A stretch of 64,000 bases of DNA, from NCBI GenBank assembly GCA_041660005.1, contig JBAZXG010000002.1, positions 24,356-88,355 of the forward strand, given 5' to 3'. This stretch comes from Patescibacteria group bacterium (GTDB taxonomy: Bacteria > Patescibacteriota > Patescibacteriia > GWA2-46-9). The notes below the pieces were generated by a model. It searched no databases and was not told where the DNA came from. It saw nothing but the letters and a program-made list of their open reading frames with translations. Positions 1,851 through 58,279 of this stretch are shown here, one piece after another; position 1 is the first letter of the stretch; the number at the start of each line of letters is the position of its first letter. The position numbers were made by a program, and so were the translations under genes.

Positions 1851-2171
1851 ATGAAAAAGTTCAGAACGCAAATCAGCCGCAATGCAAAACGCGGATTGTT
1901 GTGTGGGCTGTTCCTCATGCTCTCTATGTTCGCCCTTTCAGGGTGGGTGGACGCTATAGAAGCACGGAATAGCATCATGCCAGGGCTCAAGCAGTCAGGA
2001 GCTTGGGCGCTCTTCACTCTTGCTGCGTCGTCTGGCGCGTTAGGAGTAGGGCTCGGACTGGTAGAAAGCTGCATGGTTGAGCCGACTTCGAGAGTCACGG
2101 TGGCACTCATGGCTTGCTCGGCGATCTTCGCTGCAGTGGGTGACTGGCTTTACAGAATCAACGTCATCTAG
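1851..2171 (+). CDS. small membrane protein, paralog A of the downstream gene (GC-rich islet)
   Basis: 106 aa; N-terminus MKKFRTQISRNAKRGLL..TM resembles next ORF (TTTQIGRNAKHGVLLVLLL); GC well above flanks. Confidence 0.35.
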   Translation: MKKFRTQISRNAKRGLLCGLFLMLSMFALSGWVDAIEARNSIMPGLKQSGAWALFTLAASSGALGVGLGLVESCMVEPTSRVTVALMACSAIFAAVGDWLYRINVI

Positions 2172-2502
2172 CAACGGCTATCGTAGCGGTAGTAAAAGGG
2201 GTGCAATGGATATGACAAGCTACAAAACAACAACCCAAATAGGGCGCAACGCCAAACACGGAGTACTGCTAGTGCTGCTCCTCACTGGCACTGCGTTTGC
2301 AGTCTCGGAGTTGCTGTCTCTCTCGCCACCGCTGACAGAGGACGCGAAGACGATAGCCGCCGTCGCGCTCAGCTGCGGACTCGTAGGTGCTGTCAACGCG
2401 ACGGTGCTGCGAAAATTCTCACTCAGCTCCACTTTGCTGGCGGGAGCTGGGGCACTACTGTCCTCAATCGATTACTGGGTGAATGTTTTCAACGCTCCCT
2501 GA
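2077..2502 (+). CDS. small membrane protein, paralog B (likely true start near 2209, MDMTSYK...)
   Basis: 141 aa ORF with internal Met start followed by TM helices; paralogous to 1851..2171. Confidence 0.35.
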   Translation: MSRLRESRWHSWLARRSSLQWVTGFTESTSSSNGYRSGSKRGAMDMTSYKTTTQIGRNAKHGVLLVLLLTGTAFAVSELLSLSPPLTEDAKTIAAVALSCGLVGAVNATVLRKFSLSSTLLAGAGALLSSIDYWVNVFNAP

Positions 2503-2733
2503 TTACCGACCCGTGCCTAAACCCCGCACCTCGCGGGGCAATGGCCGAATGAACACGAAAGGCCCTTGCTGTCTCACCAACAGTCCGGGCCTTCGTTCTT
2601 TTTAGAAATGACGAAGGGCGGGTCGATCAGCGTTGCTGACCAATCCCGCCCTTCTCGTCGGTGTTACTCCTCCTTCTTGTGTGAGACGTGCGACCACCGT
2701 ATCGCTACGTCAACTCCCCTCCTGTTCTTCTCG

Positions 2734-3099
2734 TTACTTTGGAGCGGCTATCAACCACTTGCCGCAGAAATGCACTGGTGACTCCATCGAACGGAACATG
2801 AGTCGCGTACCGCTCTTCTCGTCGTCCAGTATCACCCACTGAGGGTGCCCGACCACCTTACGCACCGACCCGCGGCACGAGGGGTGGTGAATATTGCGAT
2901 AGACTTCGCACGGACCACTGGCCTGACATGTCGTCGGGACCGGAACGATATCAGCAACGACAAAGGGGCCGTCGCCGTACCGGGTGGGAGCATCGAACGT
3001 CTCGTCGTCTCTTGCCTTTTTGCTCCAGATGACTCGCTGCCCCTTTGTGAAGATCTCAACTGTTTCCTGCGTCATCGATCCGTCCTCCTGTTGAAGCAT
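2734..3099 (-). CDS. hypothetical protein (second gene of a 2-gene GC-rich operon; probable start at 3075 overlapping upstream stop as ATGA)
   Basis: 121 aa ORF; ATGA start/stop overlap with 3072..3317; no recognisable motif. Confidence 0.4.
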   Translation of the reverse strand: MLQQEDGSMTQETVEIFTKGQRVIWSKKARDDETFDAPTRYGDGPFVVADIVPVPTTCQASGPCEVYRNIHHPSCRGSVRKVVGHPQWVILDDEKSGTRLMFRSMESPVHFCGKWLIAAPK

Positions 3100-3940: not shown

Positions 3941-3959
3941 TGGTGGGTCGGCTGGGAAT
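3941..3959 (-). repeat. direct copy of the 3' terminal 19 nt of tRNA-Lys (att-like), start of a ~170 nt family-2 element (3941..4108)
   Basis: tggtgggtcggctgggaat identical to 4160..4178 (3' end of tRNA-Lys incl. CCA). Confidence 0.8.
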
Positions 3960-4120
3960 TCCGCCGCACTTCGTCTTCAGCAGTACGACTCAGTGCTCTG
4001 TCCGGGGCAGCGCTGCATGCTCGATTGACTCGCATCCATCGGCGTTCGGGGTATTCGTGATTGCTTCCGCAATCACTCAGCCCTCACTGCTGCCCGTTCG
4101 ATTCCCTGGCCATCCACGTC

Positions 4121-4160
4121 AAAAATACAAAATCCCGCCGAAAGCGGGAGTTGTATTTTT
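4121..4160. terminator. hairpin (CCCGC/GCGGG, GAAA-type loop) flanked by A-run/T-run; bidirectional intrinsic terminator between family-2 element and tRNA-Lys
   Basis: aaaaatacaaaatcccgccgaaagcgggagttgtattttt seen directly. Confidence 0.6.
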
Positions 4161-4235
4161 GGTGGGTCGGCTGGGAATCGAACCCAGAACCTTATCCTTA
4201 AGAGGGATCTGCTCTACCAATTGAGCTACCGACCC
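4160..4235 (-). tRNA. tRNA-Lys (anticodon CTT)
   Basis: manual fold: GGGTCGG acceptor, anticodon loop CT-CTT-AA, TTCGATT T-loop, CCA encoded. Confidence 0.85.
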
Positions 4236-31282: not shown

Positions 31283-31420
31283 CGTCACTCCGCCCGTCGG
31301 CGGAGCTCCTAGAACCTGTCGCTTCGCTCTTTCAAACCCATCGGTTTGAATAATTCCGCCGCAGGGAAACTCCCGTTTCCCCGACCCCTTTCCCGTGTTC
31401 GATTCCCTCGCAGTATATCA

Positions 31421-40799: not shown

Positions 40800-41210
40800 C
40801 TAATTACTTTTCTCAAAAAAAATTAACACCTCTATTATCCACTCACCTCGCAGCTTACCCTTCATGCTTTGAATTTCTTCGGAGGTAAACCACTGAACAT
40901 CCAATAACTGATCTTCTGGAATATGTAAATCTCCACCGACTATTTTTGCCTCAAAAATATGCTTTGGTGGATCTGTCGCCAGGTTCTGAAAAATATCAAT
41001 TTTTCTAACTAGGGCAACATCAAAGCCCGTTTCCTCCTTCGCTTCTTTGATTGCTGTTTCCTCTATGGTATCTCCGGCGTCAACTCGACCAGCAGGAAAA
41101 TTCCAAAGCCCATATACTTTGGGCTTTTTTTCCTGTACCAACAAGTACTTACCATCCTGTTTAACAACAACGCCCGCAACGACTGATACTTTTTGAATTT
41201 CTTTTTCCAT
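40800..41210 (-). CDS. NUDIX hydrolase
   Basis: Nudix box GRVDAGDTIEETAIKEAKEETG. Confidence 0.75.
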   Translation of the reverse strand: MEKEIQKVSVVAGVVVKQDGKYLLVQEKKPKVYGLWNFPAGRVDAGDTIEETAIKEAKEETGFDVALVRKIDIFQNLATDPPKHIFEAKIVGGDLHIPEDQLLDVQWFTSEEIQSMKGKLRGEWIIEVLIFFEKSN

Positions 41211-42628: not shown

Positions 42629-43378
42629 CTAATCTTCGACTTTCTTCGTCGAGAGCACAAATCCACTATCTTCACGAGTTTGATACCCTAGTTTTTCGGT
42701 ACTCGCTACTAATCGGCCGAGGTCTGTAGGATCTTCGGGTACCAACCGAGAGAATATCAGCGAACAAGCATTATCTTTGGCAACGCGCTCGGCGATCAAT
42801 AGTAACTGTTTGCCTGCTCCTTGTCCTTGCAAAGGAGGCGCCACGTATCTATCGGCGATATACAAATACTTTTTTCTTGACCCGTCTTTCAAGACCAAGT
42901 TGAAAATTTTGAGATTTATGAAACAGTGATGATTCTCACTGCCAATATTCACGAGGTGTGCGATGGACTTTTCATAATCAATAGTTGTAGCACTTATGGC
43001 GTTATCTATAGATATAGCATCGGAATAGTTACTAATTTCATTGGCTCTTGCTTGAAGAGCCAGATTCTTACCACTAAGACGTAATCTGTATTCTTCTTGA
43101 ATAAACGGTTTTGTTTTACCGCTATCGCCAATCAATCGCCGATCTCCTAGTCCTCTAAGTGCTTCCTGCAGCAATTGACGATATCTATTTTTTAGTGGAC
43201 CTGGCTCAACCTCTGCTACTTTGGCTTCGAGAAGTTCAATTAATTTTGTTCCTTCACCCTCGTTTAAATTTTCGAGTACCGACCTTTCTGGTCTCTCCGG
43301 ATTTTCTAAATTTTCGTCAAACCATACTTCTGGCGACGACCATTCTCTTTCAAGTCTATTTCTTTCCATTTCAGACAT
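42629..43378 (-). CDS. GNAT family N-acetyltransferase with N-terminal extension of unknown function
   Basis: C-terminal LQGQGAGKQLL (Q/RxxGxG/A acetyl-CoA motif). Confidence 0.55.
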   Translation of the reverse strand: MSEMERNRLEREWSSPEVWFDENLENPERPERSVLENLNEGEGTKLIELLEAKVAEVEPGPLKNRYRQLLQEALRGLGDRRLIGDSGKTKPFIQEEYRLRLSGKNLALQARANEISNYSDAISIDNAISATTIDYEKSIAHLVNIGSENHHCFINLKIFNLVLKDGSRKKYLYIADRYVAPPLQGQGAGKQLLLIAERVAKDNACSLIFSRLVPEDPTDLGRLVASTEKLGYQTREDSGFVLSTKKVED

Positions 43379-43515
43379 ACATCTTGAATGTTTTCCTTTA
43401 AACTATATTTTCATGAGGGCAAATGGGGCGCTCGATAAAAAACATGGAATTCCTTTTAGGAACTAACTGACTTTTCGGTGGTCACGACTACGTCTTGACC
43501 TATTTTATTGATGTC

Positions 43516-43702
43516 GGAGAGGGAGGGATGCTTCGCTTGTGGAACCCGTCGCTACGCTCTTTCAAACCCAGTTGCTTGGCGCGACACTTACTGATCTTTG
43601 ATTTTGCTGTTGATGTCAGTTTGAATAATTCCGCCACGGGAAACTCCCGTTTCCCAGCCTGTCCGCCTTCGGCGGAACCCCTTCCCGGGGTTCGAATCCC
43701 TA
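43516..43702 (-). repeat. family-1 element (copy A) beginning with a 14 nt copy of the tRNA-Ser 3' end (43516..43529); marks the left border of the island
   Basis: ggagagggagggat matches 58195..58208 of tRNA-Ser; body shares cgctctttcaaaccca..gtttgaataattccgccRcgggaaactcccgtttccc..ggttcgaatccct with the Ala and Leu loci; contains a 50 nt insertion in the P1 loop. Confidence 0.7.
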
Positions 43703-43926
43703 CCAACTATTCTAAGTGGTCTGTGCATTACCCTACAAGAGAGGAGGATTCGCCTACAAGTCGCCTCGCCTTCCGGCTTGGCGCTCGCAGGCCGCCCCTC
43801 GCGGTCTTGCTCGCCCAATTGCGTCGCAAGACATCGCTGCGGTCTTCGAATCCCTCACGCGAGCAAAGCAGTTTGCTCGCTCCTCTCCTCGGCGTTTTTA
43901 TCTTTGATATTTTAAGGAAACTCCTC

Positions 43927-44150
43927 GGAGAGGGAGGGATTTCCGCGTTCCTCGTCGCCAGCATAGCGACTCGTCGCTCTGTCCGGGGCAGCGCTGAAAG
44001 CTGCGCCCGCTCACTTTCATCGGCGCTCGCTTCATTCGCTTTGTCTTCCGCCAAAACTCATGGCTCGCTGCTGCCCGTTCGAATCCCTCTCCATCTTACC
44101 AAAAATGAGCTGTGCCGCCCACGCACACGTGGGCACCACAGCTCATTCGG
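43927..44150 (-). repeat. family-2 element (copy B) beginning with a second 14 nt copy of the tRNA-Ser 3' end (43927..43940), followed by a long hairpin
   Basis: body shares ctctgtccggggcagcgctg...catcggcg...ctgctgcccgttcgaatccct with the element next to tRNA-Lys; 11 bp stem hairpin aatgagctgtg/cacagctcatt at about 44103..44149. Confidence 0.7.
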
Positions 44151-44412
44151 TGTGTCGCGGTCTAGAACCGCCCCATCGCTAGTATTGTAAGGGGTTTCAA
44201 GGGGTTTGGCGATTCAGCGTTTTTAACCGTCTCGGTCGGGGTCTGCTTGAGAAGAGCGAAGCTGAATGCCAAAAAATGCCAAATATTTTCACCTGCCATA
44301 TTATATACAAATAGCGTACTCCTGCTCAGGATACGCCTATTACTGTTATTAAATGCGGATTAGCACCCTCCTCTCTCATTGAGCGCACCACAGACTTTTG
44401 GCATTTGACGAA

Positions 44413-44892
44413 TCAGATCACTCGGCACTCCATTAGGTGACGACAGAGCGCTTCTTTGCTCACTAAGTATTTTTTTGCCAAAAATTCAAGATCGGGATTT
44501 CGTGAGAAGTCTCCTCTAATAAACGCGAGCGGTATCAGGAGCTCGGCTCCAAATTGATAGGCTTCCCGTTCTGCATTACTGTCAGGGTTTTGCCCACAGA
44601 CGTGCCCCATAAGGAAGTGTCCAATCTCGTGAGCAATCGTGAGTCGCCGCCGTACCCAGGCCGGCGTTGGGTTGAAGCCAATCGTCGGCTGACCATCGAT
44701 CATGAGAAGTGCACCATCAACGGTTTCAAACTCAACGCGCATGATATCAAGGCCACGCTGTGCCTTGAGGTGATTAATGACCTTCCACAGCGAGACCGGA
44801 ATTTCATTCACCCCGGAATCTTTAAAGAGCTTTCTGGCGAGTTTCCTCGCCCCACCTACATTCGGACCAAGCTGTACGTCATCATTTTCCAC
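44413..44892 (-). CDS. ImmA/IrrE family metallo-endopeptidase
   Basis: HEIGHFLMGH (HEXXH) motif, 159 aa, downstream of and overlapping XRE gene. Confidence 0.75.
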   Translation of the reverse strand: MENDDVQLGPNVGGARKLARKLFKDSGVNEIPVSLWKVINHLKAQRGLDIMRVEFETVDGALLMIDGQPTIGFNPTPAWVRRRLTIAHEIGHFLMGHVCGQNPDSNAEREAYQFGAELLIPLAFIRGDFSRNPDLEFLAKKYLVSKEALCRHLMECRVI

Positions 44893-45211
44893 GGCGTTTT
44901 TTAGCTAGCTCGATGAAGCGTAGGAGAGCTTCCTTGTCTTTGGCCGTCAGGTCCTTATCAGCCCTGAGAGCAACTTTGATATCCACGGGGCGACTCTCTT
45001 GCCCAAGGAAGTAGGCAATGTCTCGATGCAACGCTTTAGCAGCTTTGTGTAGGTCTTCGGATCTGAGTTTGCGTTCTCCCGCCTCAATAAGCGAAATGGC
45101 TGTAGCTGACTCATAGTCCAAGGCCTTTGCTAATTGCGCCTGAGACAGTCCGGCCGCTTCACGCGCGGCCCGCAAACGAGCCCCAATTTGAACATTCACC
45201 TCATCTTTCAT
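44882..45211 (-). CDS. XRE family HTH transcriptional regulator (ImmR-like)
   Basis: LRAAREAAGLSQAQLAKAL HTH. Confidence 0.75.
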   Translation of the reverse strand: MKDEVNVQIGARLRAAREAAGLSQAQLAKALDYESATAISLIEAGERKLRSEDLHKAAKALHRDIAYFLGQESRPVDIKVALRADKDLTAKDKEALLRFIELAKKRRGK

Positions 45212-45328
45212 ATTGATATTCTAAATCAATCAGAATGATTTGACAAGGAATTTGCCACTTTGCTAAACTAGATATATCATTATGTTTATATGGATTAGAC
45301 AGCCCTTACCCTACCTAACAACTCCCTT

Positions 45329-46591
45329 ATGAAAATTGAACATGTCAACGTAGGCGATCTTAAACCCTCAGTCTACAATCCCAGAAAGTGGGATGAGAAA
45401 ATTATCGCGGATATGACCGAGAGCATCAAGCGGTTCGGTCTGTGCGATCCCCTGATTGTGAATGGTGCCCCCGACAGAAAGAATATCGTAATTGGTGGCC
45501 ATCTGCGCCTGAAGGTTGCGACCAGCCTCGGATTCACCGAGGTGCCAGTCGTTTATCTGAACATTCCAGAGATTGAGCGTGAGCAGGAACTCAACCTTCG
45601 TCTCAATAAAAATCTCGGTAATTGGGACGACGAGCTTCTAAAGGCGTTCGACATGAACCTTCTGCTTGATGTCGGATTCACCCCCGACGAACTGAACTTC
45701 CACTTCGATGACGTCCTCGACGTGAGCGACGACGGATTCAACGTCAAGGAGGAACTTGCCAAAATCACAACGCCGGAGAGTAGGCCGGGCGACCTCTACG
45801 AACTTGGACAACATCGACTGCTCTGTGGCGACGCGCTCGATCTCAATAATATCACAAAGCTAATGGGCAACGAGAAAGCGCATATGATCTTCTGCGATCC
45901 GCCGTACAACATCGGTCTTGACTACAGGAATGGCATCGGCACAGCTGGAAAGTACACCACGGACAAGCTCGTAAACGATAATAAAAGCATAAAAGATTAC
46001 GAGCAGTTTATCGAACAATCCTTACAAAACGCCTTGGCCGCAAGTCGTGACGACGTCCATGTCTTCTACTGGTGCGATGAAAAAAATGTCTGGCTTTTGC
46101 AACAACTCTACCAGAAGCACGGCATCACGAACCGGCGGCTGTGCCTCTGGGTGAAAAACAATTTCGATCCTACACCGCAGGTTGCCTTTAACAAGGTTAT
46201 TGAACCATGCGTCTATGGCACCCGCGGCAAACCCGCACTTAACTCTAGCATTAAGAACCTGTCGGAAATCATGAACCAAGATGTGAACTCTATTGGTATG
46301 TACGACGACCTCATGAGCATCGTCCAGCTCTGGCTCGTGAAGCGCGACAACACCGCCGACTATGAGCACCCCACTCAAAAGCCAATCACTCTAAATGAGA
46401 AGCCGATGAAGCGCTGCAGTGCACCTGGAGAAATCGTACTCGACTTCTTCGGCGGAAGCGGATCGACACTCATTGCTGCCGAGCAGTTGAAACGCCGCGC
46501 TTTCCTCGTTGAGCTCGATCCCATATTTTGCGATCTCATTATTCGACGCTATGAACACTTCACCGGCAACCACGCCAAAAGAATCCAATAA
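45329..46591 (+). CDS. ParB-like nuclease domain fused to beta-class DNA methyltransferase (N6-adenine or N4-cytosine)
   Basis: N-terminal ParB/Srx fold (IVIGGHLRLKVA); motif IV DPPYNIG then motif I FFGGSGSTLIAAEQLKRRAFLVE at C-terminus (IV before I = beta class). Confidence 0.8.
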   Translation: MKIEHVNVGDLKPSVYNPRKWDEKIIADMTESIKRFGLCDPLIVNGAPDRKNIVIGGHLRLKVATSLGFTEVPVVYLNIPEIEREQELNLRLNKNLGNWDDELLKAFDMNLLLDVGFTPDELNFHFDDVLDVSDDGFNVKEELAKITTPESRPGDLYELGQHRLLCGDALDLNNITKLMGNEKAHMIFCDPPYNIGLDYRNGIGTAGKYTTDKLVNDNKSIKDYEQFIEQSLQNALAASRDDVHVFYWCDEKNVWLLQQLYQKHGITNRRLCLWVKNNFDPTPQVAFNKVIEPCVYGTRGKPALNSSIKNLSEIMNQDVNSIGMYDDLMSIVQLWLVKRDNTADYEHPTQKPITLNEKPMKRCSAPGEIVLDFFGGSGSTLIAAEQLKRRAFLVELDPIFCDLIIRRYEHFTGNHAKRIQ

Positions 46592-47333
46592 TCCCTCCGA
46601 CGGCCTATGGCGGCTCGGCAGTCACCGCCTTCTTCGCGGAGACGCCACAAAGAAGGCGGATGTGGACAGGCTCATCAACGGCGACAAAGTGACGCTGCTT
46701 TTAACCGATCCTCCGTACGGTGTTGGGTACGTTGAAGGCAAGCAAGAATTCTTGAAAACAATTCACCGAGGAAACAAATCAAAAAAATTTACTGCCATCC
46801 AAGGAGACGGTGTGGGGGATGACTACTACGACTTCTCACGAAAATGGCTGGAAACGGTTCGGCCTCACTTCAAGGACAAAAATGCATTTTATATTTTTAA
46901 CGGAGACGCGAAGCTCAGAGAGTTCCTGAACGCCCTGCACGACACGGGATACACAAAGTCGGCACTCCTCATCTGGCTGAAGAACCATCTCGTCGTCGGC
47001 CGAAAAGATTTTCACCCGCAGCACGAGCTCATCGCCTACGGCTGGTACGGCAGACACGCGTTTTTCGGCAACAAGGATAGGACGACACTCTTCTACCCCA
47101 AACCGAGCAGCAGCAAGCTCCACCCCACCATGAAGCCACCCGCACTTCTGCGACGCCTCATCTATCACAGCACCAAGCCGGGAGATATCGTCCTGGATTT
47201 ATTTGGTGGTTCCGGATCGACTTTGATCGCCTGCGAGCAGCTAGGCAGACGATGCTTCATGATGGAATGCGACACCTCGTACTGCGCCACCATCGTCGAA
47301 CGATGGCAGAAACTCACCAAGGGAAAAGCATAA
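46509..47333 (+). CDS. beta-class DNA methyltransferase (second, stand-alone; start probably internal Met)
   Basis: motif IV LLTDPPYGVGY, motif I LDLFGGSGSTLIACEQLGRRCFMMEC; overlaps upstream MTase in another frame. Confidence 0.8.
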   Translation: MSSIPYFAISLFDAMNTSPATTPKESNNPSDGLWRLGSHRLLRGDATKKADVDRLINGDKVTLLLTDPPYGVGYVEGKQEFLKTIHRGNKSKKFTAIQGDGVGDDYYDFSRKWLETVRPHFKDKNAFYIFNGDAKLREFLNALHDTGYTKSALLIWLKNHLVVGRKDFHPQHELIAYGWYGRHAFFGNKDRTTLFYPKPSSSKLHPTMKPPALLRRLIYHSTKPGDIVLDLFGGSGSTLIACEQLGRRCFMMECDTSYCATIVERWQKLTKGKA

Positions 47334-47749
47334 CCCTGTCCTCATGTATCACGTCTATGGAAAGTACGGAGGCCGAACATTCGAAAACCATATCAGTGTA
47401 CAAGAAACAAGAATTCGAGGCCTACGTGCTGTGGCGATCGATGCCGTCAATCCTGCGTGGCCAGCCGAGGCACGTCATCGAAAAACTTGGCATCGACGAC
47501 GAGATTGCTATGTCGCTCCTCGACATCAAGAACCAGACCGAGTTCGCCAAGCGGTATGGCATCAAGGATCTCGGGACCCTGACAGACTGGAACAAACGAA
47601 TCGATGAGATGGGCGGACTCATGCGCTACATCAACGCCTGGGCCAAGCGCCTGACTCCGAACGTTATCTCAGCCCTGTACCGCGAGGCCACGAAGAGCGG
47701 ACGGGCCGCCGAGGTCAAAGCCTGGATGGAAATTATTGAAGGGATGTAA
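47252..47749 (+). CDS. putative HTH DNA-binding protein (terminase-small-subunit/Nu1-like helix-turn-helix); probable start at 47360
   Basis: EFAKRYGIKDLGTLTDWNKR resembles wHTH of phage small terminase/Nu1; weak. Confidence 0.3.
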   Translation: MLHDGMRHLVLRHHRRTMAETHQGKSITLSSCITSMESTEAEHSKTISVYKKQEFEAYVLWRSMPSILRGQPRHVIEKLGIDDEIAMSLLDIKNQTEFAKRYGIKDLGTLTDWNKRIDEMGGLMRYINAWAKRLTPNVISALYREATKSGRAAEVKAWMEIIEGM

Positions 47750-47754
47750 ACAAT

Positions 47755-47973
47755 ATGGAGATTGAAGAAAAAAATCTACGGAAAACACTCAGCATAGAAG
47801 AAGCGGCGGGCATTTTGTCTGACACGCTCCGCGATGTGGCCGAGCGCAAGACTACAGTGCGGCGGGCGCTGGTAATGTCGCGCCTGGCGTTGGCACTCTC
47901 CAGAGTACTCGAAATTGCCGACCTCAAAGCTCGCGTCGAGTTTTTAGAGCAAATGTTAAAGAAACGACGCTAA
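47755..47973 (+). CDS. small coiled-coil hypothetical protein
   Basis: 72 aa ORF tightly packed between neighbours. Confidence 0.3.
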   Translation: MEIEEKNLRKTLSIEEAAGILSDTLRDVAERKTTVRRALVMSRLALALSRVLEIADLKARVEFLEQMLKKRR

Positions 47974-47974
47974 T

Positions 47975-49816
47975 ATGGCCAACCTCTCCACCGCTCTGCG
48001 GACCGGGAACCTGACCGCACGCGAACGGTTCCTGCTCCTCATCCAAAACGACATCCAGCGCATGAAGACGGGAAAAGATATCCTGACGACGGCCGACAAA
48101 GCCGCGCTCGAGAATTGGCAAGCTAAAAATAACGTCGAAGCGTCTGAGTGGAACCGCCTGAACGAGGGGTGGAAACACACTGGACGCATGGACATTGAAG
48201 TTGAGTTCGCCTACCAGGAAGCGAACGCCGCACATCTCGCCAAGCTGCCAATCATCATTGAGCTCCTCACCTACCGGGCTGATCGAGAGATGAGCCGCTG
48301 TATCAATGTCCTGAAGCGATTGAAAAAAGTAAACCCAAAAGAAGCGAGCGTGATCATCGCCAAGCAGAAAGCCGCCAAACTCAAAGAAGGCATAGACGTC
48401 GAGTACGCGGTTTACCGGTTGGCCTTCGAGCGCCTCACTCCGGCAGAACAACAGCAAATGAAAGAGCTCTACGGCGACGTTGAAACTGACCATCAGTACC
48501 TCGACCAAGAGGAGGTTATCGCCAATCTGTACGGCAACCAAACCGAGCTCACCCCCGAGGCAAAAGATAAGCTCGCCACGCTGGTAGCCGAACGGAGCTA
48601 TAACGCATTTGCCAAAGAACATCAACTCTTCCATTACTTCGCCTGCATCCCGCTTGCTGAGGTGGCCCGATACTTCATCGCGCTAAAAAATATCATCCTG
48701 CCAAGCGAATCATCGCCTGCAGACGGAAAGGAAAAGGACCCATTCGCCGATCTCAATCAGTGCAACGAGTTGGCTGAAGCATTACAAACGTACGCGACGA
48801 CGCACCACACCACGGTCGAGAAGCTGCTCACGGAAGCGTGCCGCGTCTGGCTCGATGACGGCCTTCTTGAAACTTACACGCCGCTCGTCACGAGCAACAA
48901 TGCCGCGCTTTTTGAGCGGTGGCTCGCGGCCAAAATTGAAGCCAAGACGGTTATAACTCAACACGTTAGTGCTGGTGAACTCATGCTGCGCCATCGTACG
49001 GAGGAAGAAACAAGAAAGGAAAAGCTCTTGAGCAAAGACAGCTACGACCGTGAGTTAGCCACGGCACAAGCAGTACTTGAGGAGATCGGACGGGAGGCGA
49101 CAATCAAAGGAGAGCTTGATGAAAAATCAGCCTTCGAGACGTTCGCCGATCAGGTCATTACTGGCGAGAGTCTCTACGCATTCCCGGGCGACTACGAATT
49201 TGTGAAAAGCTTCAAGGAGCGAGCCGACATATACGACCCCAACCTCGGCATTGTCTACGCGGACGATGATCCAAACCACGCAGGCGAGCACTTGGACCAG
49301 GAACTCCTCATCTGCGACATAACCGACAGCGGCGACGCGAGCGTCTTTAGCCGCTACGGCATGGCGATATCGCTACTCGCAAACATCTTCGATAAAAAAA
49401 TGTTTTTTGAGGAGGTTGCCGAGGACGGAAAACTATTCCTTCACTTCAAGGATTCGCAGATTGAGGAGGCGTTCCGGGCAAGACAACAAAACCTCGTCGA
49501 TGGCTACGCCAAACTCCTCGCCTATCAAGCGGTGTTTAGCAAAGTGGCCGCCATCTACGAGGCCGACCTTGCCTACCACGTCACGGAACGGCTGACGGGG
49601 TTACGCGAAAATATTACCCAGCACAACGAGGCAGTTCAGCAAGCGACGAACCTCGGCGAACGGCTGCACCGAAAAGCAAAGTACGACTTCTTCCGGAGAC
49701 GTGACCGGCTATACTTGAAAGAGGATCTTGTTATAAATATCGATACGATCAAGCCTGACCAAGCAACCATGAAAGAGCACGAAGCGAAGTTGAAAAGGAT
49801 TTTTGGGAACTTCTAA
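47975..49816 (+). CDS. large hypothetical alpha-helical protein (island cargo)
   Basis: 613 aa, no P-loop or known motif recognised. Confidence 0.5.
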   Translation: MANLSTALRTGNLTARERFLLLIQNDIQRMKTGKDILTTADKAALENWQAKNNVEASEWNRLNEGWKHTGRMDIEVEFAYQEANAAHLAKLPIIIELLTYRADREMSRCINVLKRLKKVNPKEASVIIAKQKAAKLKEGIDVEYAVYRLAFERLTPAEQQQMKELYGDVETDHQYLDQEEVIANLYGNQTELTPEAKDKLATLVAERSYNAFAKEHQLFHYFACIPLAEVARYFIALKNIILPSESSPADGKEKDPFADLNQCNELAEALQTYATTHHTTVEKLLTEACRVWLDDGLLETYTPLVTSNNAALFERWLAAKIEAKTVITQHVSAGELMLRHRTEEETRKEKLLSKDSYDRELATAQAVLEEIGREATIKGELDEKSAFETFADQVITGESLYAFPGDYEFVKSFKERADIYDPNLGIVYADDDPNHAGEHLDQELLICDITDSGDASVFSRYGMAISLLANIFDKKMFFEEVAEDGKLFLHFKDSQIEEAFRARQQNLVDGYAKLLAYQAVFSKVAAIYEADLAYHVTERLTGLRENITQHNEAVQQATNLGERLHRKAKYDFFRRRDRLYLKEDLVINIDTIKPDQATMKEHEAKLKRIFGNF

Positions 49817-50029
49817 CTCATTAGTCTACCCGGACCACCTCGAGACCGGACCCAAATTGGTCAACGCCGATAAGGTTTTTGAAGCCTATTTATGATTATT
49901 GAAACAACGTACCCTAAGCACCCTGAAATATAATCTCCCAAACATTAATACCCACATAAGGTGTACGGAGAAAATAGACCACAGAAACGAAGTGTATTCC
50001 GTCCTCCACTTTCCATATTTCAGAACTTT

Positions 50030-51116
<1,087 letters not shown>

Positions 51117-51122
<6 letters not shown>

Positions 51123-51485
51123 ACATCCCCTATAACTAAAGTGCAGCAAGAAATACCGATTGTGCAAAAACTCTACGATCTCTACAAAACCTTCTACGGC
51201 TTCGCCGTGCTTTTTCCGAAGAAAGATAAGTACACACTCGGCGCAAAGTGTGAACAGTACATAATCAACACACTGGAATTGATACTGGCAGCAAGTGCAG
51301 TTACTCCGGCAGAGAAGCTTGGTCTACTACGTCAAGCAAACGTAAAGTTCGATACGCTTAAGGTATTTCTTCGATTATCCCGTGAGATTGGAGCAATCGA
51401 CGCGAAAAAATATCTTGTCCTCCAGAGAGAAATTCAAGAAATTGGTCGCATGCTTGGCGGCTGGCAACGGTCGCTCAGTGCATAA
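51117..51485 (+). CDS. avd: DGR accessory variability determinant Avd (four-helix-bundle protein)
   Basis: 122 aa; KLYDLYKTFYGFAVLFPKKDKYTLG...EIGRMLGGWQRS resembles Bordetella phage bAvd (..EVGRILGSWIAR) and the four-helix-bundle family; start ATG overlaps RT start in palindrome ATGCAT. Confidence 0.75.
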
Positions 51486-51544
51486 TCAACATCGGGGACC
51501 TGTAAGAACAGAATCCCCGAGCCAACTGCTATCGTAGACACAAT

Positions 51545-51663
51545 CCGAGGAAGGACACTCCACCAGAGTAGTTGTCGTTCGCATTCGCAAGATTCGTCCT
51601 GTTGTCGAACTCGAGCTTATCGTCGTTCGGGTTCAGGTAGAGCGAGTACTCAGCGGACTGCCA
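51545..51663 (-). repeat. DGR template repeat (TR)
   Basis: 119 nt about 89% identical to 52085..52203; 12 of 13 differences are at TR adenines (coding strand). Confidence 0.85.
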
Positions 51664-51990: not shown

Positions 51991-52080
51991 TGTCCGTAGG
52001 AGGGATCCGGAAGAAAACCGGAAGACCAAAAACCGAAATCCTTGGTCCAAGGTTCAAACTTCCGAAACCCGAAGTCCACA

Positions 52081-52983
52081 CTACCCGAGGAAGGACACCC
52101 CACCAGAGGAGTCGTCGCACGCATGCGCAAGAGCCGTCCTGTTGTCGAACTCGAGCTCCTCGTCGTGCGGGAGCAGGTAGAGCGAGTACTCAGCGGACTG
52201 CCACTGGTAGGCGGAGAGGTCGATCACCGGGGTGTTGTTGTCCCGGCAGATGACCTCTGGCCACATGATGGCTGAGAGGATGGCGTTGAAGCCGTTGAGG
52301 ATGAACCCCTCCGGCAACGTCGCCATCTGCTCACGCTGGGCGTGCACCGAGAATCCCTGCGTTGCACAAGGCAGCTCGATCGTGGCGATCGGACCTTCCT
52401 TGGCGCGAACGAGGAGAAGATCGAGCCGACTCTCCGGCACGACCGTCACTTGCCCTTCGAGCTGACCCCGACGGTGGTTGGTAAAACCACGACCAGGGAA
52501 CTCGGCCTTGTACGCACGCTCGAGCGCCGAGAGAAGAAACTCGAGCATCTGGCCGTGGTCGTGGACAACCATCTGCGGAACGATGATTGGCAGGTGCACA
52601 CCCATCCCGACGTTCACCACCGAGGAATCGTCGAGGATGACCATGAGACGGCCGACCTCGTCCTCGAACCAAGCCGCGTCGGGCAACACGATGTTGCCTT
52701 CGAAGGCGTGATCCATGCGCTCGCGACGAGCTGCGTAGTCAATGACCTCCGGCTGGAGCAGATGGTACGCGCGATTGGCGTCGCAGACCTTGGCCTTGAT
52801 GCCACGAGGTGGAATACGCCGACCGTGACGATCGAAGAACATCGAGATGACCTCTTCGATCGTTACCTTGGCACCGGCCAAGATTGCGTTCACGGCTCCG
52901 AGCCCGTCGCCGCCGTAGACGCATCCCAGCAGATCGATGAGCTTCTCGTTCTGATTCCCTGTCAAAGATCCGTACTTTGCCAT
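52081..52983 (-). CDS. DGR variable (target) protein; VR occupies the last about 40 codons
   Basis: 300 aa, GC-rich; C-terminus ...QSAEYSLYLLPHDEELEFDNRTALAHACDDSSGGVSFLG aligned to TR-encoded ...QSAEYSLYLNPNDDKLEFDNRTNLANANDNYSGGVSFLG (Asn AAC/AAT codons diversified). Confidence 0.8.
   Translation of the reverse strand: MAKYGSLTGNQNEKLIDLLGCVYGGDGLGAVNAILAGAKVTIEEVISMFFDRHGRRIPPRGIKAKVCDANRAYHLLQPEVIDYAARRERMDHAFEGNIVLPDAAWFEDEVGRLMVILDDSSVVNVGMGVHLPIIVPQMVVHDHGQMLEFLLSALERAYKAEFPGRGFTNHRRGQLEGQVTVVPESRLDLLLVRAKEGPIATIELPCATQGFSVHAQREQMATLPEGFILNGFNAILSAIMWPEVICRDNNTPVIDLSAYQWQSAEYSLYLLPHDEELEFDNRTALAHACDDSSGGVSFLG
52085..52203 (-). repeat. DGR variable repeat (VR) at the 3' end of the target gene
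   Basis: see TR; adenine-specific substitution pattern. Confidence 0.85.
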
Positions 52984-53402
52984 TGCTGGCCTCCGTTATC
53001 AGGCATCATGTGCCCGATGTCTTTAGCCAATTCCCTTGGCCGTTGGGGTCTTTTCCTCTACAGGATCAATCTAGAAATACTAGGGAAAAGACATTGCAAT
53101 GTAGCAGAAATGACAGGAAAAGTCAATGACTTTCGGGTGAATATTTAAATGGTTGATTCAATACAATCTGCTTGCACATATCACAATAAATAAAGGCATC
53201 AATAACTCCTAAAGTATAACCACCAAAAATCAGCCGGATGTAAAACATCAATACCCAGGCTTTCGCCTGGGTATTGATCCTAATGTGTATTCTGTGGGAA
53301 CGATGCTTCTCGATGCTCGTTCTTAACGTGATTGAAAATCCGGTGCCGTTTATTGGGTTCGTATAACCTATCCCACGCTAAGTCGGACAAATGCAGCAAC
53401 AC

Positions 53403-53878: not shown

Positions 53879-54895
53879 TTATTTCTCCCAGGTTGTGCCG
53901 TCGGTAAAATGAACATGGTATGGCTCAACCTCGATCTTCGACGTGGTGTCGTGACCAAAGAGACTCCACGCATCCGAACCTGTTTTGCTGGGAGCAATAA
54001 GAGAACCTTGGCTAAGACCATTGAAGACGTTATCTCCCAGAAAGCTGGCGGGCTCCCCAAAACTGTTAAACATCCTGATATGCAGCTTGTATGCGTCGAT
54101 GGTTTTGTCTGACACATTCTTAATCGTCACATTCGCTTGAGGCATACCAATGATGTCTTTGGTAACACTGCTTTTCACAATCTCGAGAGGAATTGGTTCT
54201 TGTGCGATTGTTGCGGCTGATGGCTTAGACGAAACTACTGGCGTTGTTGTCGCCGTAGATGAATCTAATTTATTTGTGCTAGTTGATGAAGCAGCGGCTA
54301 CAATCACCAGAACAACCAAGACCGCGACCGTGATTGCAGTCTTATGCCGCGTTATGTTTTCCTCCCACTTACTTAAGTGGGGTTGTGCCAGTGGTTCTCC
54401 TTCCATACGATGCGTGTATCGAGAAGCAAGGAGGTGCATAATAATACCGCCGGACAACCCAACAACAAACCCTAGTCCAACCGCTAATGTCCCGCCTATC
54501 GCCGTACCAATAGCTGCGCCAGCTTGCGCTGCCCCGCTCGTGTTCCTCACCGCCGCCGCGCCGACATGAAACATTATAGCGAGTGCAGAGATGGGCAGAA
54601 GAAAGAAGCCAATCTCTGTGGCCCGAAACAAATCCTTCAGTACTTTATTCTTGTTCGTATCCGACCACACATGCAGAATTAGCAGAGCCCAAAAAATTAT
54701 AAACCCGAGACCCATGGCTCGGTTTCCAGACATCCACGCCCAATTTTGAGTAAATACAGCGGCAGGAAGGAGAGTGGCCAATATCTTCGTTGGCAAGAAT
54801 CGATTCTTCGATTGAGGAGTGTGTTGCTCCATAAAAATAAAGAATAAAAAAATAAGCACCTCGGGTATGACGAGACGCTTTGGGTATATACACAA
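53879..54895 (-). CDS. membrane protein with 5-6 TM helices and C-terminal extracytoplasmic domain, hypothetical
   Basis: 338 aa. Confidence 0.45.
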   Translation of the reverse strand: MCIYPKRLVIPEVLIFLFFIFMEQHTPQSKNRFLPTKILATLLPAAVFTQNWAWMSGNRAMGLGFIIFWALLILHVWSDTNKNKVLKDLFRATEIGFFLLPISALAIMFHVGAAAVRNTSGAAQAGAAIGTAIGGTLAVGLGFVVGLSGGIIMHLLASRYTHRMEGEPLAQPHLSKWEENITRHKTAITVAVLVVLVIVAAASSTSTNKLDSSTATTTPVVSSKPSAATIAQEPIPLEIVKSSVTKDIIGMPQANVTIKNVSDKTIDAYKLHIRMFNSFGEPASFLGDNVFNGLSQGSLIAPSKTGSDAWSLFGHDTTSKIEVEPYHVHFTDGTTWEK

Positions 54896-55085
54896 AGCCC
54901 CCCGCCAGCGATAGCCTTACGGCTACCCATACCCGTTTCCAGGTATGACCGGTAAGGGTGCTCTGACGAGGAGCCCTTTATTCCTTACCGGTTTTCGGCC
55001 ATGCCCAGAGCGAACTCTGAGTTTAGGCCATACTCAAATTGTGCTCACATGGTAGCAGGGAAACCCCTATAAATAAAGGGTCTTT

Positions 55086-56540
55086 ATGGGGACTTACCTA
55101 CAAGTTACCTACAGCTCGTTTAGGGACTTTTTGCGGATTCCAGTGATTCTAGCCGCTCTGGACTCCCTAGAGGGGTTGCGTCATCAATGTGGCTATATGA
55201 ACCACGGTAATACAACGGGGCCGGACGGAGCGGACGCCCCAACCAAGGAACAACCGCTCCCTATTAACGTGCGGTACTGCCTGTACGCAAGGAAAAGTAC
55301 CGAATCGGAGGAACGCCAGATCCTCTCCATTGATTCGCAGATTAAAGAGATGCTGGAATTGGCTGAGCGGGAGGGGTTGGAGGTAGCCGAGATAAGGCGC
55401 GAGAGCCACTCGGCTAAGAGTTCTGGTGCGAGAAAGGTGTTCAACGAAATCCTCGTTGACATTAGAGGGGGCCGCTTCAATGGACTTCTAACCTGGGCTC
55501 CAGATAGGCTTGCGCGTAATGCGGGTGACCTAGGGTCGTTAGTTGACCTTATTGACCAGAAAACGCTTATTGAAATACGCACGTTCAGCCAACGGTTCAC
55601 GAACAACCCGAATGAGAAATTCCTCCTCATGATTCTCGGCAGCCAGGCAAAGCTCGAGAACGATAACCGTGGCATTAATGTCAAGCGCGGTATGAAGACC
55701 CGCTGCGAAATGGGACTACGGCCGAACGTCGCACCGACCGGATACTTGAATGAGAAACGGACGGATAAAAAGTGCCACGCTATCGTTGACCCCGAACGTG
55801 GGCCCATCATCAAACAAATGTTTGAGAAAGTAGCGAACGAACACTGGTCAGGACGGAAGCTCTACCACTGGTTGAAGTTCGAGTTGAACTTTAAGACCAA
55901 AGGAAATAAAAACTTGTCGCTCTCCAATATTTACATCATCATCAATAATCCCTTCTACTACGGTGTCTTCGAATTCCCGCGAGGCAGCGGTAACTGGTAT
56001 ACCGGAATCCATACGCCACTAGTCGCGAAGGAGCTCTACGACCAAGCCCATACCCAGTTAAAGCGTGACCGCATTGTCCGAGCTGAGATTAAAGAATTCG
56101 CCTTCACGAAGCTCCTAGCCTGTGGCGATTGCGGGTCTGGAATCTCGGCTGACGAGAAGTACAAGCATCTCAAAGATGGCACCATGGCACGGTATGTGTA
56201 CTACGGCTGCACGCGAGCAAGAAACCTGCACTGCAAAGGTGGATACATCCGCGAGGAGGAACTGATCAATCAAATGATTGCCATCATTGATCAGCTCGAC
56301 ATCAACGAGATTGGCATGCGGTACAAGTTTGACGAAGAGATGGCAAGGCTCGCCAAGTTCCAAAAGAACTTCTACGGCGCAGCTGGCGGCACCGCACCTA
56401 AACTTGAGAACGTGGACTTGAAGGGCTACGCCAAATACTTACTGCGCGAGGGCAGCGTCATTGAAAAACGTGAACTCATGGCCTGCATCAAAAGCAAGCT
56501 CGTGCTGACGCGGAAAGTGTTGACGCTGCAAACACAGTAA
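55086..56540 (+). CDS. large serine recombinase/integrase (start probably at internal Met about 55197)
   Basis: resolvase catalytic domain YARKSTESEERQILSIDSQ, recombinase domain, zinc ribbon CGDCGS...YYGCTRARNLHCKGG, C-terminal coiled coil. Confidence 0.8.
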   Translation: MGTYLQVTYSSFRDFLRIPVILAALDSLEGLRHQCGYMNHGNTTGPDGADAPTKEQPLPINVRYCLYARKSTESEERQILSIDSQIKEMLELAEREGLEVAEIRRESHSAKSSGARKVFNEILVDIRGGRFNGLLTWAPDRLARNAGDLGSLVDLIDQKTLIEIRTFSQRFTNNPNEKFLLMILGSQAKLENDNRGINVKRGMKTRCEMGLRPNVAPTGYLNEKRTDKKCHAIVDPERGPIIKQMFEKVANEHWSGRKLYHWLKFELNFKTKGNKNLSLSNIYIIINNPFYYGVFEFPRGSGNWYTGIHTPLVAKELYDQAHTQLKRDRIVRAEIKEFAFTKLLACGDCGSGISADEKYKHLKDGTMARYVYYGCTRARNLHCKGGYIREEELINQMIAIIDQLDINEIGMRYKFDEEMARLAKFQKNFYGAAGGTAPKLENVDLKGYAKYLLREGSVIEKRELMACIKSKLVLTRKVLTLQTQ

Positions 56541-58189: not shown

Positions 58190-58279
58190 TGGCGGAGAGG
58201 GAGGGATTCGAACCCTCGAGGCCCTTGCGGGCCTACCGCTTTTCGAGAGCGGCACCTTCAACCACTCGGCCACCTCTCC
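58190..58279 (-). tRNA. tRNA-Ser (anticodon CGA), class II
   Basis: manual fold: GGAGAGG acceptor, GCCGAGTGGTTGAAGG D-arm, anticodon loop CT-CGA-AA, long variable arm GGCCCGCAAGGGCC, TTCGAAT, discriminator G, CCA. Confidence 0.85.

Follow-up and report, generated by a model that had tools for sequence, protein, structure and literature searches.

Why should a member of the Patescibacteria carry two overlapping DNA methyltransferase genes with no restriction endonuclease beside them? This question is raised by a 64,000-nucleotide stretch of the genome of a Patescibacteria group bacterium (assembly GCA_041660005.1, contig JBAZXG010000002.1, positions 24,356 to 88,355), hereafter called the window. 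Within it, open reading frame 1 (ORF1) encodes a methyltransferase with an N-terminal ParB-like domain (ParB-MTase) and ORF2 encodes a second methyltransferase (MT2). A preliminary description, made from the sequence alone, had called the two proteins beta-class methyltransferases without a restriction partner, located on a mobile and possibly phage-derived island. Both genes were found as described. They open a five-gene operon (ParB-MTase, MT2, p130, p72 and p613) on an integrative element which is inserted at the 3' end of a tRNA-Ser gene (Table 1). The fusion of a ParB domain to an N6_N4 methyltransferase, paired with a second methyltransferase, is a known feature of phages and plasmids and the enzymes are ordinary; the useful part is their genomic setting rather than the enzymes. 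The integrative-element family defined by p72 and p613 is apparently undescribed.

Both proteins matched the Pfam family N6_N4_Mtase (PF01555, cut-off 26.7 bits), ORF1 with residues 185-404 (E = 2.2e-26, 93.6 bits) and ORF2 with an E-value of 3.5e-30 (106 bits). In PHROGs, both matched phrog_498, a 'DNA methyltransferase' (E = 4.6e-100 for ORF1 and 5.7e-75 for ORF2). Read from the sequence, DPPY is located at residue 190 and FGGSG at residues 374-378 of ORF1, and in the 260-aa form of ORF2 at residues 53 and 218-222, respectively. Motif IV is N-terminal to the S-adenosylmethionine (SAM)-binding motif I in both proteins, which is the beta-class order. Alignments revealed HPTxKP directly before motif I in both, the same as in M.RsrI. 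Across 117 homologues of ORF1, DPPY, HPT.KP and F-G-S-G were invariant or nearly so, and the motifs of ORF2 were retained in 58 of 67 alignments, confirming the motif assignment made earlier. Since the methyltransferase domains of ORF1 and ORF2 are only 28% identical to each other, their recognition regions are likely to be different.

The two genes do overlap in different frames, as had been reported, but the length of ~80 nt given for the overlap is not retained. It requires a TTG start at 46509 (83-nt overlap), which we rejected in favour of the conserved ATG at 46551. Because related loci share an ATG start 41 nt (sometimes 20 nt) before the stop codon of ORF1, and because the ORF2 frame in these loci often opens only ~52 nt before that stop, the overlap is most likely 41 nt.

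The N-terminal part of ORF1 (residues 2-81) matched Pfam ParB_N (PF02195) with an E-value of 2.7e-9 (37.4 bits, cut-off 26.3) and, among PDB sequences, the N-terminal domains of Spo0J and Noc. The ParB-like domain that had been noted before is therefore real, but the 'ParB-like nuclease' in its name is a label which stems from the old Pfam name of the ParB/Srx fold. Box II of ORF1 reads GGHLR (residues 56-60). In the 117 homologues, where it takes the form GGH[LF]R, G56, G57 and H58 were invariant and R60 was present in 116. Mean identity among these homologues was roughly equal along the protein (77% in the ParB domain, 73% in the linker and 74% in the methyltransferase domain). Since GxxR is kept and the domain is as constrained as the catalytic one, it probably binds nucleotide or DNA, and a nucleotide-binding role is at least as likely as a nuclease. 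Fusions of this kind have been treated as nucleotide-binding ParB-CTPase folds (PMC12704722). ORF1 does not resemble a canonical partition ParB of the ParABS type: its matches are confined to the N-terminal domain and the remainder is a methyltransferase, its score against TIGR00180 is under the cut-off, and no parA was found among the neighbouring genes.

Next, the base specificity was considered, for which both N6-adenine (N6A) and N4-cytosine (N4C) had been allowed. The closest solved relatives of ORF1 and ORF2 are M.RsrI, CcrM, M.BceJIV, the DpnA-like enzyme of H. pylori and MboIIA, all of which are N6A enzymes; N4C enzymes score far lower. N4C enzymes usually carry SPPY/F instead of DPPY. 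Because of the DPPY motif and the N6A activity of the nearest relatives, ORF1 and ORF2 are probably N6-adenine enzymes. CcrM (GANTC; PDB 6pbd), M.BceJIV (GTWWAC; PDB 8urk) and M.RsrI (PDB 1eg2), the top matches among solved structures, share with ORF1 and ORF2 the PF01555 fold and the order DPPY ... HPTxKP ... FxGSG, and of these three only M.RsrI has a cognate nuclease. The likeness is, however, mainly confined to the SAM-binding C-terminal block, and the NCBIfam scores of ORF1 and ORF2 are far under the equivalog cut-offs (59 bits versus 830 for CcrM). Since the target-recognition regions differ, the specificity of the three enzymes is not transferable to ORF1 and ORF2. Furthermore, the three are chromosomal regulators without a ParB domain, whereas ORF1 and ORF2 are element-borne and ORF1 carries such a domain.

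In line with the earlier claim, a restriction endonuclease was not detected in any annotated open reading frame of the island and its flanks (~39.6-60.1 kb); the arrangement that defines a Type II restriction-modification system, a cognate endonuclease beside the methyltransferase, is not seen here. The three genes downstream of ORF2 do not supply one either. Searches of p130, p72 and p613 against Pfam, PHROGs, PADLOC and NCBIfam gave zero matches, nuclease families included, and the profiles of p130 and p613 did not match any PDB sequence. A model of p613 suggested neither a nuclease nor an ATPase fold, and no nuclease, helicase or NTPase signature was apparent in it. In addition, homologues of p72 and p613 occur without any methyltransferase in ~50 loci. 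These p613 homologues (35-43% identity), which we refer to as clade B (loci L048-L102, for example L048 5700-16300), are never adjacent to methyltransferases or p130. They are located in units of 7-10 kb, often in tandem arrays of 80-99.9% identical units, that encode a MerR-like protein, an HTH_17 protein, a 123-aa p72-like protein, the p613 homologue, a 381-aa unknown protein, a DnaG-type primase, a PC4-like protein and a tyrosine integrase. The homology of p72 is to the C-terminal part of F4, the ~123-aa protein encoded ahead of the p613 homologues in clade B (E = 2e-5 to 3e-6). No clade B element was found in IMG/VR. p72 and p613 are the core module of a family of Patescibacteria mobile elements and are present without methylation. 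Because they occur without methyltransferases, p613 is neither a cognate nuclease nor an effector that depends on the methyltransferases. ORF1 and ORF2 are orphan methyltransferases.

With the methyltransferases, the operon is highly conserved. The 41-nt overlap of ORF1 and ORF2 is followed by gaps of 23, 5 and 1 nt, and the same gene order recurs in ~25 Paceibacterota loci with differing flanks (clade A). All close relatives with enough sequence contained the full operon, irrespective of whether ParB-MTase or p613 was used as query: it was found in the ParB-MTase-queried loci L002, L004, L011-L013 and L015-L018, although MT2 looks degenerate in L016, and in 14 of 14 p613-queried clade A loci that have at least 2.8 kb upstream; locus L014 ends inside MT2. 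Identities to the proteins of the window in related loci amounted to ~80% for ParB-MTase, 72% for MT2, 80-85% for p130, 65% for p72 and 50% for p613. Some 100 homologues of ORF1 with 65-85% identity were found in metagenome-assembled genomes of Paceibacterota, Minisyncoccia, Adlerbacteria and Taylorbacteria. An identical ORF1, together with the genes around it, is also present on a Logan contig from run SRR18595301. The genes flanking the operon differ between the window, L002 and L004, and a tRNA-Ser(cga) adjoins the operon in L004, too. Since the flanks differ between genomes, the operon unit moves between genomic sites. Literature searches gave nothing specific on the operon, and no close relative of p613 or of the clade A operon was found in 2.9 million IMG/VR contigs, a profile query included.

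The mobility of the locus, which the preliminary description had proposed, is borne out by its boundaries. The surrounding DNA is chromosomal, encoding GyrA, NusA, an H+-pyrophosphatase and transporters. The 15-mer CGGAGAGGGAGGGAT, which is the 3' end of the tRNA-Ser(cga) gene, is present in three exact copies at 43515, 43926 and 58193 (three in the window versus 0 expected in shuffles). These repeats delimit an island of ~14.3-14.7 kb, a pattern classically left by elements that insert at the 3' end of a tRNA gene. The island also encodes a large serine recombinase, whose homologues (59-64% identity) are located downstream of the operon in L002, L016 and L046. With copies of the tRNA 3' end on either side, a site-specific recombinase and neighbourhoods that differ across genomes, the island has the features of an integrative element. 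The left terminal arm belongs to a recurrent element, since the similar insert beside tRNA-Lys (Table 1) is flanked by exact 18-nt copies of the tRNA-Lys 3' end. Repeat-bounded insertion into a tRNA 3' end is common to the island and other tRNA-inserted elements such as integrative mobilisable elements, phage satellites and genomic islands, and so is the combination of recombinase, repressor switch and accessory cargo, here a diversity-generating retroelement (DGR), a gene similar to the phage anti-restriction-induced system (PARIS) and the methyltransferases. Unlike these elements, for which a tyrosine integrase is usual at tRNA sites, the island encodes a large serine recombinase; it has no recognisable replication, conjugation or capsid genes, and its hallmark genes p72 and p613 have no described homologues.

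Upstream of the operon and divergent from it lie the genes of an XRE-family helix-turn-helix (HTH) repressor and an ImmA/IrrE-type peptidase, which overlap by 11 nt. A pair of this kind was seen beside the operon in the loci that were inspected for it or gave a match: proteins with the same domains were called in L001-L005 and tblastn matches to ImmA/XRE were obtained in 11 of 14 clade A loci. The pair is not uniform in related loci: it exists in two unrelated versions and is either divergent, as in the window, or co-directional. The spacer between the pair and ORF1 contains overlapping promoter-like sites (TTGACA-18-TAAACT on the plus strand from 45240 and TTGTCA-17-TAGAAT on the minus strand from 45246), and the clustering of three such sites in 45212-45328 is suggestive of a control region as judged by consensus. 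The arrangement of an XRE HTH gene with an M78 (HExxH) peptidase gene beside a presumed target operon is that of ImmR/ImmA of ICEBs1, DdrO/IrrE and CapH/CapP. Cleavage of the repressor by the ImmA-type protease is established for ImmR/ImmA of ICEBs1, DdrO/IrrE of Deinococcus and CapH/CapP of the cyclic oligonucleotide-based antiphage signalling system (CBASS).

Where does the methyltransferase pair come from? ParB-MTase matches were obtained in 849 phage records, 261 of which cover at least 80% of the query at ~33-35% identity, and in 403 plasmid records, 101 of which cover at least 80%. The earlier statement that such fusions are typical of phages and plasmids is thereby corroborated, and the same enrichment of fusions between a ParB-CTPase fold and an N6_N4 methyltransferase in phages and prophages has been published, with suggested anti-defence roles (PMC12704722). 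The phage and prophage fusions of phrog_498, among them an 'adenine-specific methyltransferase' encoded by Javan prophages of Streptococcus, have the two-domain layout of ORF1 over its full length, and a second methyltransferase gene often follows directly, as in the window; both are found on mobile DNA. However, only about one third of the residues of ORF1 are identical to the phage proteins. The phage partner is often a C5 methyltransferase with terminase genes next to it, whereas the partner in the window is a beta-class N6_N4 enzyme followed by three Patescibacteria-specific orphan genes. In Streptococcus phage Javan320 the order is ParB-MTase, C5 methyltransferase, a hypothetical gene, TerS, TerL and portal, and an Oscillospiraceae phage encodes ParB-MTase, C5 methyltransferase and, further on, TerL. 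The 604-aa protein after ParB-MTase in the latter was considered as a homologue of p613 and rejected, as it is an unrelated C5 methyltransferase.

Three distant relatives from the candidate phyla radiation (CPR) also carry ParB-MTase together with MT2 (49-54% identity): L019 from WWE3, L006 from IMG/VR and L020 from Microgenomates. In L019 and L020 the pair is followed by a TerS-like HTH_Tnp_1_2 protein, and the layout of open reading frames in L006 is that of L019. A TerL (phrog_38, 4.8e-74; tested in L019 only) is encoded downstream, plus a serine recombinase. The position of ParB-MTase and MT2 before TerS/TerL in these relatives argues for an ancient, phage-type pair, whose terminase slot is taken by p130, p72 and p613 in the Paceibacterota lineage. 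The suggestion of a phage-derived origin thus stands for the ancestry of the methyltransferase pair but not for the present island, in whose scanned open reading frames no terminase, portal, capsid or tail gene was detected by Pfam or PHROGs (the latter covering 42629-51167 only). In this the element is unlike the phage carriers of phrog_498 fusions, which have virion genes.

Taking the evidence together, we consider it moderately probable that ORF1 and ORF2 are active, element-encoded orphan beta-class methyltransferases of N6A type that recognise two motifs, protect the element against restriction by self-methylation and are switched on by removal of a repressor. The five genes would then form a translationally coupled operon, whose predicted promoter overlaps that of the divergent XRE/ImmA pair. 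In the resting state, XRE would repress the operon. Upon a stress or transfer signal the ImmA-type protease would cleave the repressor, by analogy to ICEBs1, DdrO/IrrE and CapH/CapP, and the methyltransferases would be produced together with the core proteins p72 and p613 of the element. The DNA of the element and, incidentally, of the host would be methylated at two motifs and so be protected in advance from restriction-modification in the next host. Rather than act as a nuclease, the ParB/Srx domain would most likely bind nucleotide and/or DNA and so load or regulate the enzyme. Several points weigh against this proposal. The anti-restriction role is the conventional view of element-borne orphan methyltransferases, carried over by analogy to the family of ORF1 and ORF2. 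The methyltransferases are conserved like a core gene (77-89% identity) and never lost in clade A; such conservation exceeds the expectation for cargo that can be dispensed with, and the enzymes could instead serve the life cycle of the element, for example in replication, packaging or regulation. A promoter scan of the whole 5.8-kb region was no better than chance (4 sites versus 5.3 expected). Finally, Box II of ORF1 (GGHLRLK) lacks two arginines and the glutamate of the canonical GERRxRA of CTPase ParB proteins, so that nucleotide binding by the ParB domain is not assured. A further reading, which we put forward only tentatively, is that the pair forms the conserved front end of an undescribed family of small, Patescibacteria-specific integrative elements with p72/p613 as hallmark. 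Its clade A would comprise XRE/ImmA, ParB-MTase, MT2 and p130, often with DGR and serine recombinase, with clade B as sister, and the methyltransferases might be required in the life cycle, for example as a heterodimer loaded via the ParB domain, instead of being anti-restriction cargo that the element can do without.

Three further explanations have to be weighed against self-protection of the element by methylation. The phage synteny upstream of TerS/TerL in Javan320, the Oscillospiraceae phage and the CPR relatives L019, L006 and L020, together with an island size of 14.7 kb and a repressor/integrase layout that resemble phage satellites, would fit a remnant of a prophage late or packaging module. 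p130 would then be TerS-like, the element satellite-like or defective, and the methyltransferases would modify DNA around packaging. We regard this as unlikely: the profile of p130 does not resemble the TerS-like proteins encoded in L019 and L020, the scanned island is free of terminase and virion genes, and neither p613 nor the clade A operon turned up in the IMG/VR contigs. More doubtful still is a new methylation-based defence system with a logic like that of restriction-modification, bacteriophage exclusion (BREX) or the methylation-associated defence system (MADS), in which the methyltransferases mark self, p613 (with p130 and p72) is the effector sensing or attacking invader DNA that lacks the modification, and a CapH/CapP-type pair acts as damage-responsive switch. 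The XRE/ImmA pair does match the CapH/CapP models used for regulators of defence systems, but pairs of the ImmR/ImmA type are just as characteristic of switches in mobile elements. The operon genes are strictly conserved together, p613 (~50% identity) diverges much faster than the methyltransferases and p130 (~80%), like proteins in an arms race, and other defence genes travel as cargo, a PARIS-like AriAB in the island and GmrSD/HNH in L002. On the other hand, an effector that depends on methylation should not stand alone, as p72 and p613 do in the methyltransferase-free loci; p613 displays no nuclease, helicase or ATPase motif or fold, and PADLOC has no model for p130, p72 or p613. Very improbable, finally, is that the two enzymes are housekeeping epigenetic regulators of the host like CcrM or Dam which merely adjoin a mobile element. 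Their best NCBIfam and PDB relatives include the orphan regulators CcrM and M.BceJIV, and they are highly conserved across many Paceibacterota. Yet the genes are located inside the repeat-bounded island, always travel with the XRE/ImmA-p130-p72-p613 set through unrelated neighbourhoods, and score far from the CcrM equivalog. Peptide patterns of ORF1 were found in 10 of 185,579 species-representative genomes, a search that finds close relatives only and is a weak sign of patchiness.

Patescibacteria (CPR) are thought to rely heavily on restriction-modification over CRISPR. If so, self-methylation at two motifs would equip an element well for moving between hosts. p130, p72 and p613 mark out what appears to be an undescribed family of CPR mobile elements, for whose cataloguing they offer a handle, and the methylome of any carrier would allow two motifs to be assigned to two genes at once.

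Table 1 Features of the tRNA-Ser island and its methyltransferase operon (positions in the window)
Feature	Coordinates	Strand	Remarks
Direct repeat 1 of tRNA-Ser 3' end (CGGAGAGGGAGGGAT)	43515..43529	.	outer left boundary, att-like
Direct repeat 2 of tRNA-Ser 3' end	43926..43940	.	inner left boundary
Left terminal arm	43941..44095	.	155 nt, 73-76% identical to ~200-nt insert beside tRNA-Lys
ImmA/IrrE-type M78 metallopeptidase, CapP-like	44413..44892	-	HEIGH motif; Pfam Peptidase_M78 2.4e-15; PADLOC CapP 2.5e-18
XRE-family HTH repressor, ImmR/CapH-like	44882..45211	-	Pfam HTH_31/HTH_3 ~1e-12; PADLOC CapH 1.7e-10
Putative divergent control region	45212..45328	.	117 nt; promoter-like sites (consensus matches only) and short inverted repeats
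ORF1 (ParB-MTase)	45329..46591	+	420 aa; ParB_N, then beta-class N6_N4 DNA methyltransferase
ORF2 (MT2)	46551..47333	+	260 aa; second beta-class N6_N4 DNA methyltransferase; from 46509 if TTG start
p130	47357..47749	+	highly conserved, all-helical, weakly HTH-like; without family assignment
p72	47755..47973	+	small helical protein; homologous to C-terminus of ~123-aa protein F4
p613	47975..49816	+	orphan, mostly helical; hallmark of Patescibacteria mobile-element family
DGR reverse transcriptase	50030..51167	-	split by frameshift at (GA)14.5 tract
bAvd, DGR accessory protein	51024..51485	+	Pfam bAvd 1.1e-18
DGR template repeat (TR), 126 nt	51538..51663	-	
DGR target gene, 300 aa	52081..52983	-	variable repeat (VR) 52078-52203 at 3' end
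LOOT RNA (Rfam RF03000)	54910-55029	-	90.7 bits, cut-off 46.4
Large serine recombinase, probable island integrase	55086..56540	+	Pfam Resolvase, Recombinase and Zn_ribbon_recom
PARIS-like (AriAB)/OLD-family ATPase-Toprim protein, 481 aa	56574..58019	-	best match PADLOC AriAB 1.4e-26
tRNA-Ser(cga)	58190..58279	-	3' end 58193-58207 is third repeat copy, right boundary

The non-coding left end of the island (43490-44190) contains, besides two of the tRNA-Ser 3'-end copies, three T-loop-like TTCGAATCC motifs and a 20-bp hairpin (44104-44147), and parts of it recur beside tRNA-Lys and tRNA-Ala genes elsewhere in the window (3942-4178 and 31312-31381). These sequences at three tRNA genes may be remnants of one family of integrative elements, or derivatives of it similar to miniature inverted-repeat transposable elements (MITEs). 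The region was not accepted as a tRNA, tmRNA or other known RNA, since there was no Rfam match at E-values up to 1 and no ARAGORN gene. An 'intron-containing tRNA' called by ARAGORN at a lowered threshold only was not trusted, and the region is read as att repeats and element arms.

The DGR of the island is complete, comprising reverse transcriptase, accessory protein, template repeat and target gene. On the minus strand, 13 of the 15 differences between TR and VR are at template adenines. DGR reverse transcriptases (~40-50% identity) are also encoded after p613 in L004, L029, L031 and L046. A perfect (GA)14.5 tract (50539-50567) is located exactly at the break of the reverse transcriptase frame, which leaves the fragments 50030-50431 and 50517-51167. 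Within this tract an independent Logan assembly (L001) comes to an end, and nothing comparable is present in the related reverse transcriptase genes of L004, L014, L029, L031 and L046. The tract could act as an on/off switch through strand slippage, or it could stem from a problem of assembly. Two 1-kb stretches of the window are high in G+C (0.57 at 2001-3000 and 0.60 at 52001-53000, versus ~0.48 elsewhere); the latter is the DGR target gene and the former is downstream of a tRNA-Lys/tRNA-Arg pair.

The LOOT RNA is located in the spacer that separates the serine recombinase gene from a divergent gene for an unknown 338-aa protein (53879-54895, minus strand); the papers searched did not describe the biology of this RNA. 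The AriAB-like protein, which also matches models for OLD, GajA, PtuA and the retron Eco8 effector, is the product of a predicted defence gene at the end of the island nearest to the tRNA. Downstream of the operon, L002 (14549-18238), from another Paceibacterota genome, encodes a type IV restriction-like GmrSD_N/HNH protein, a methylase of the EcoRI type and a serine recombinase that shares 60% identity with that of the window; the defence genes after the operon indicate that the variable cargo region of such islands collects defence genes. Just outside the island, a 136-aa open reading frame (40800-41210, minus strand) matches the PADLOC candidate defence model PDC-S07 (2.6e-13).

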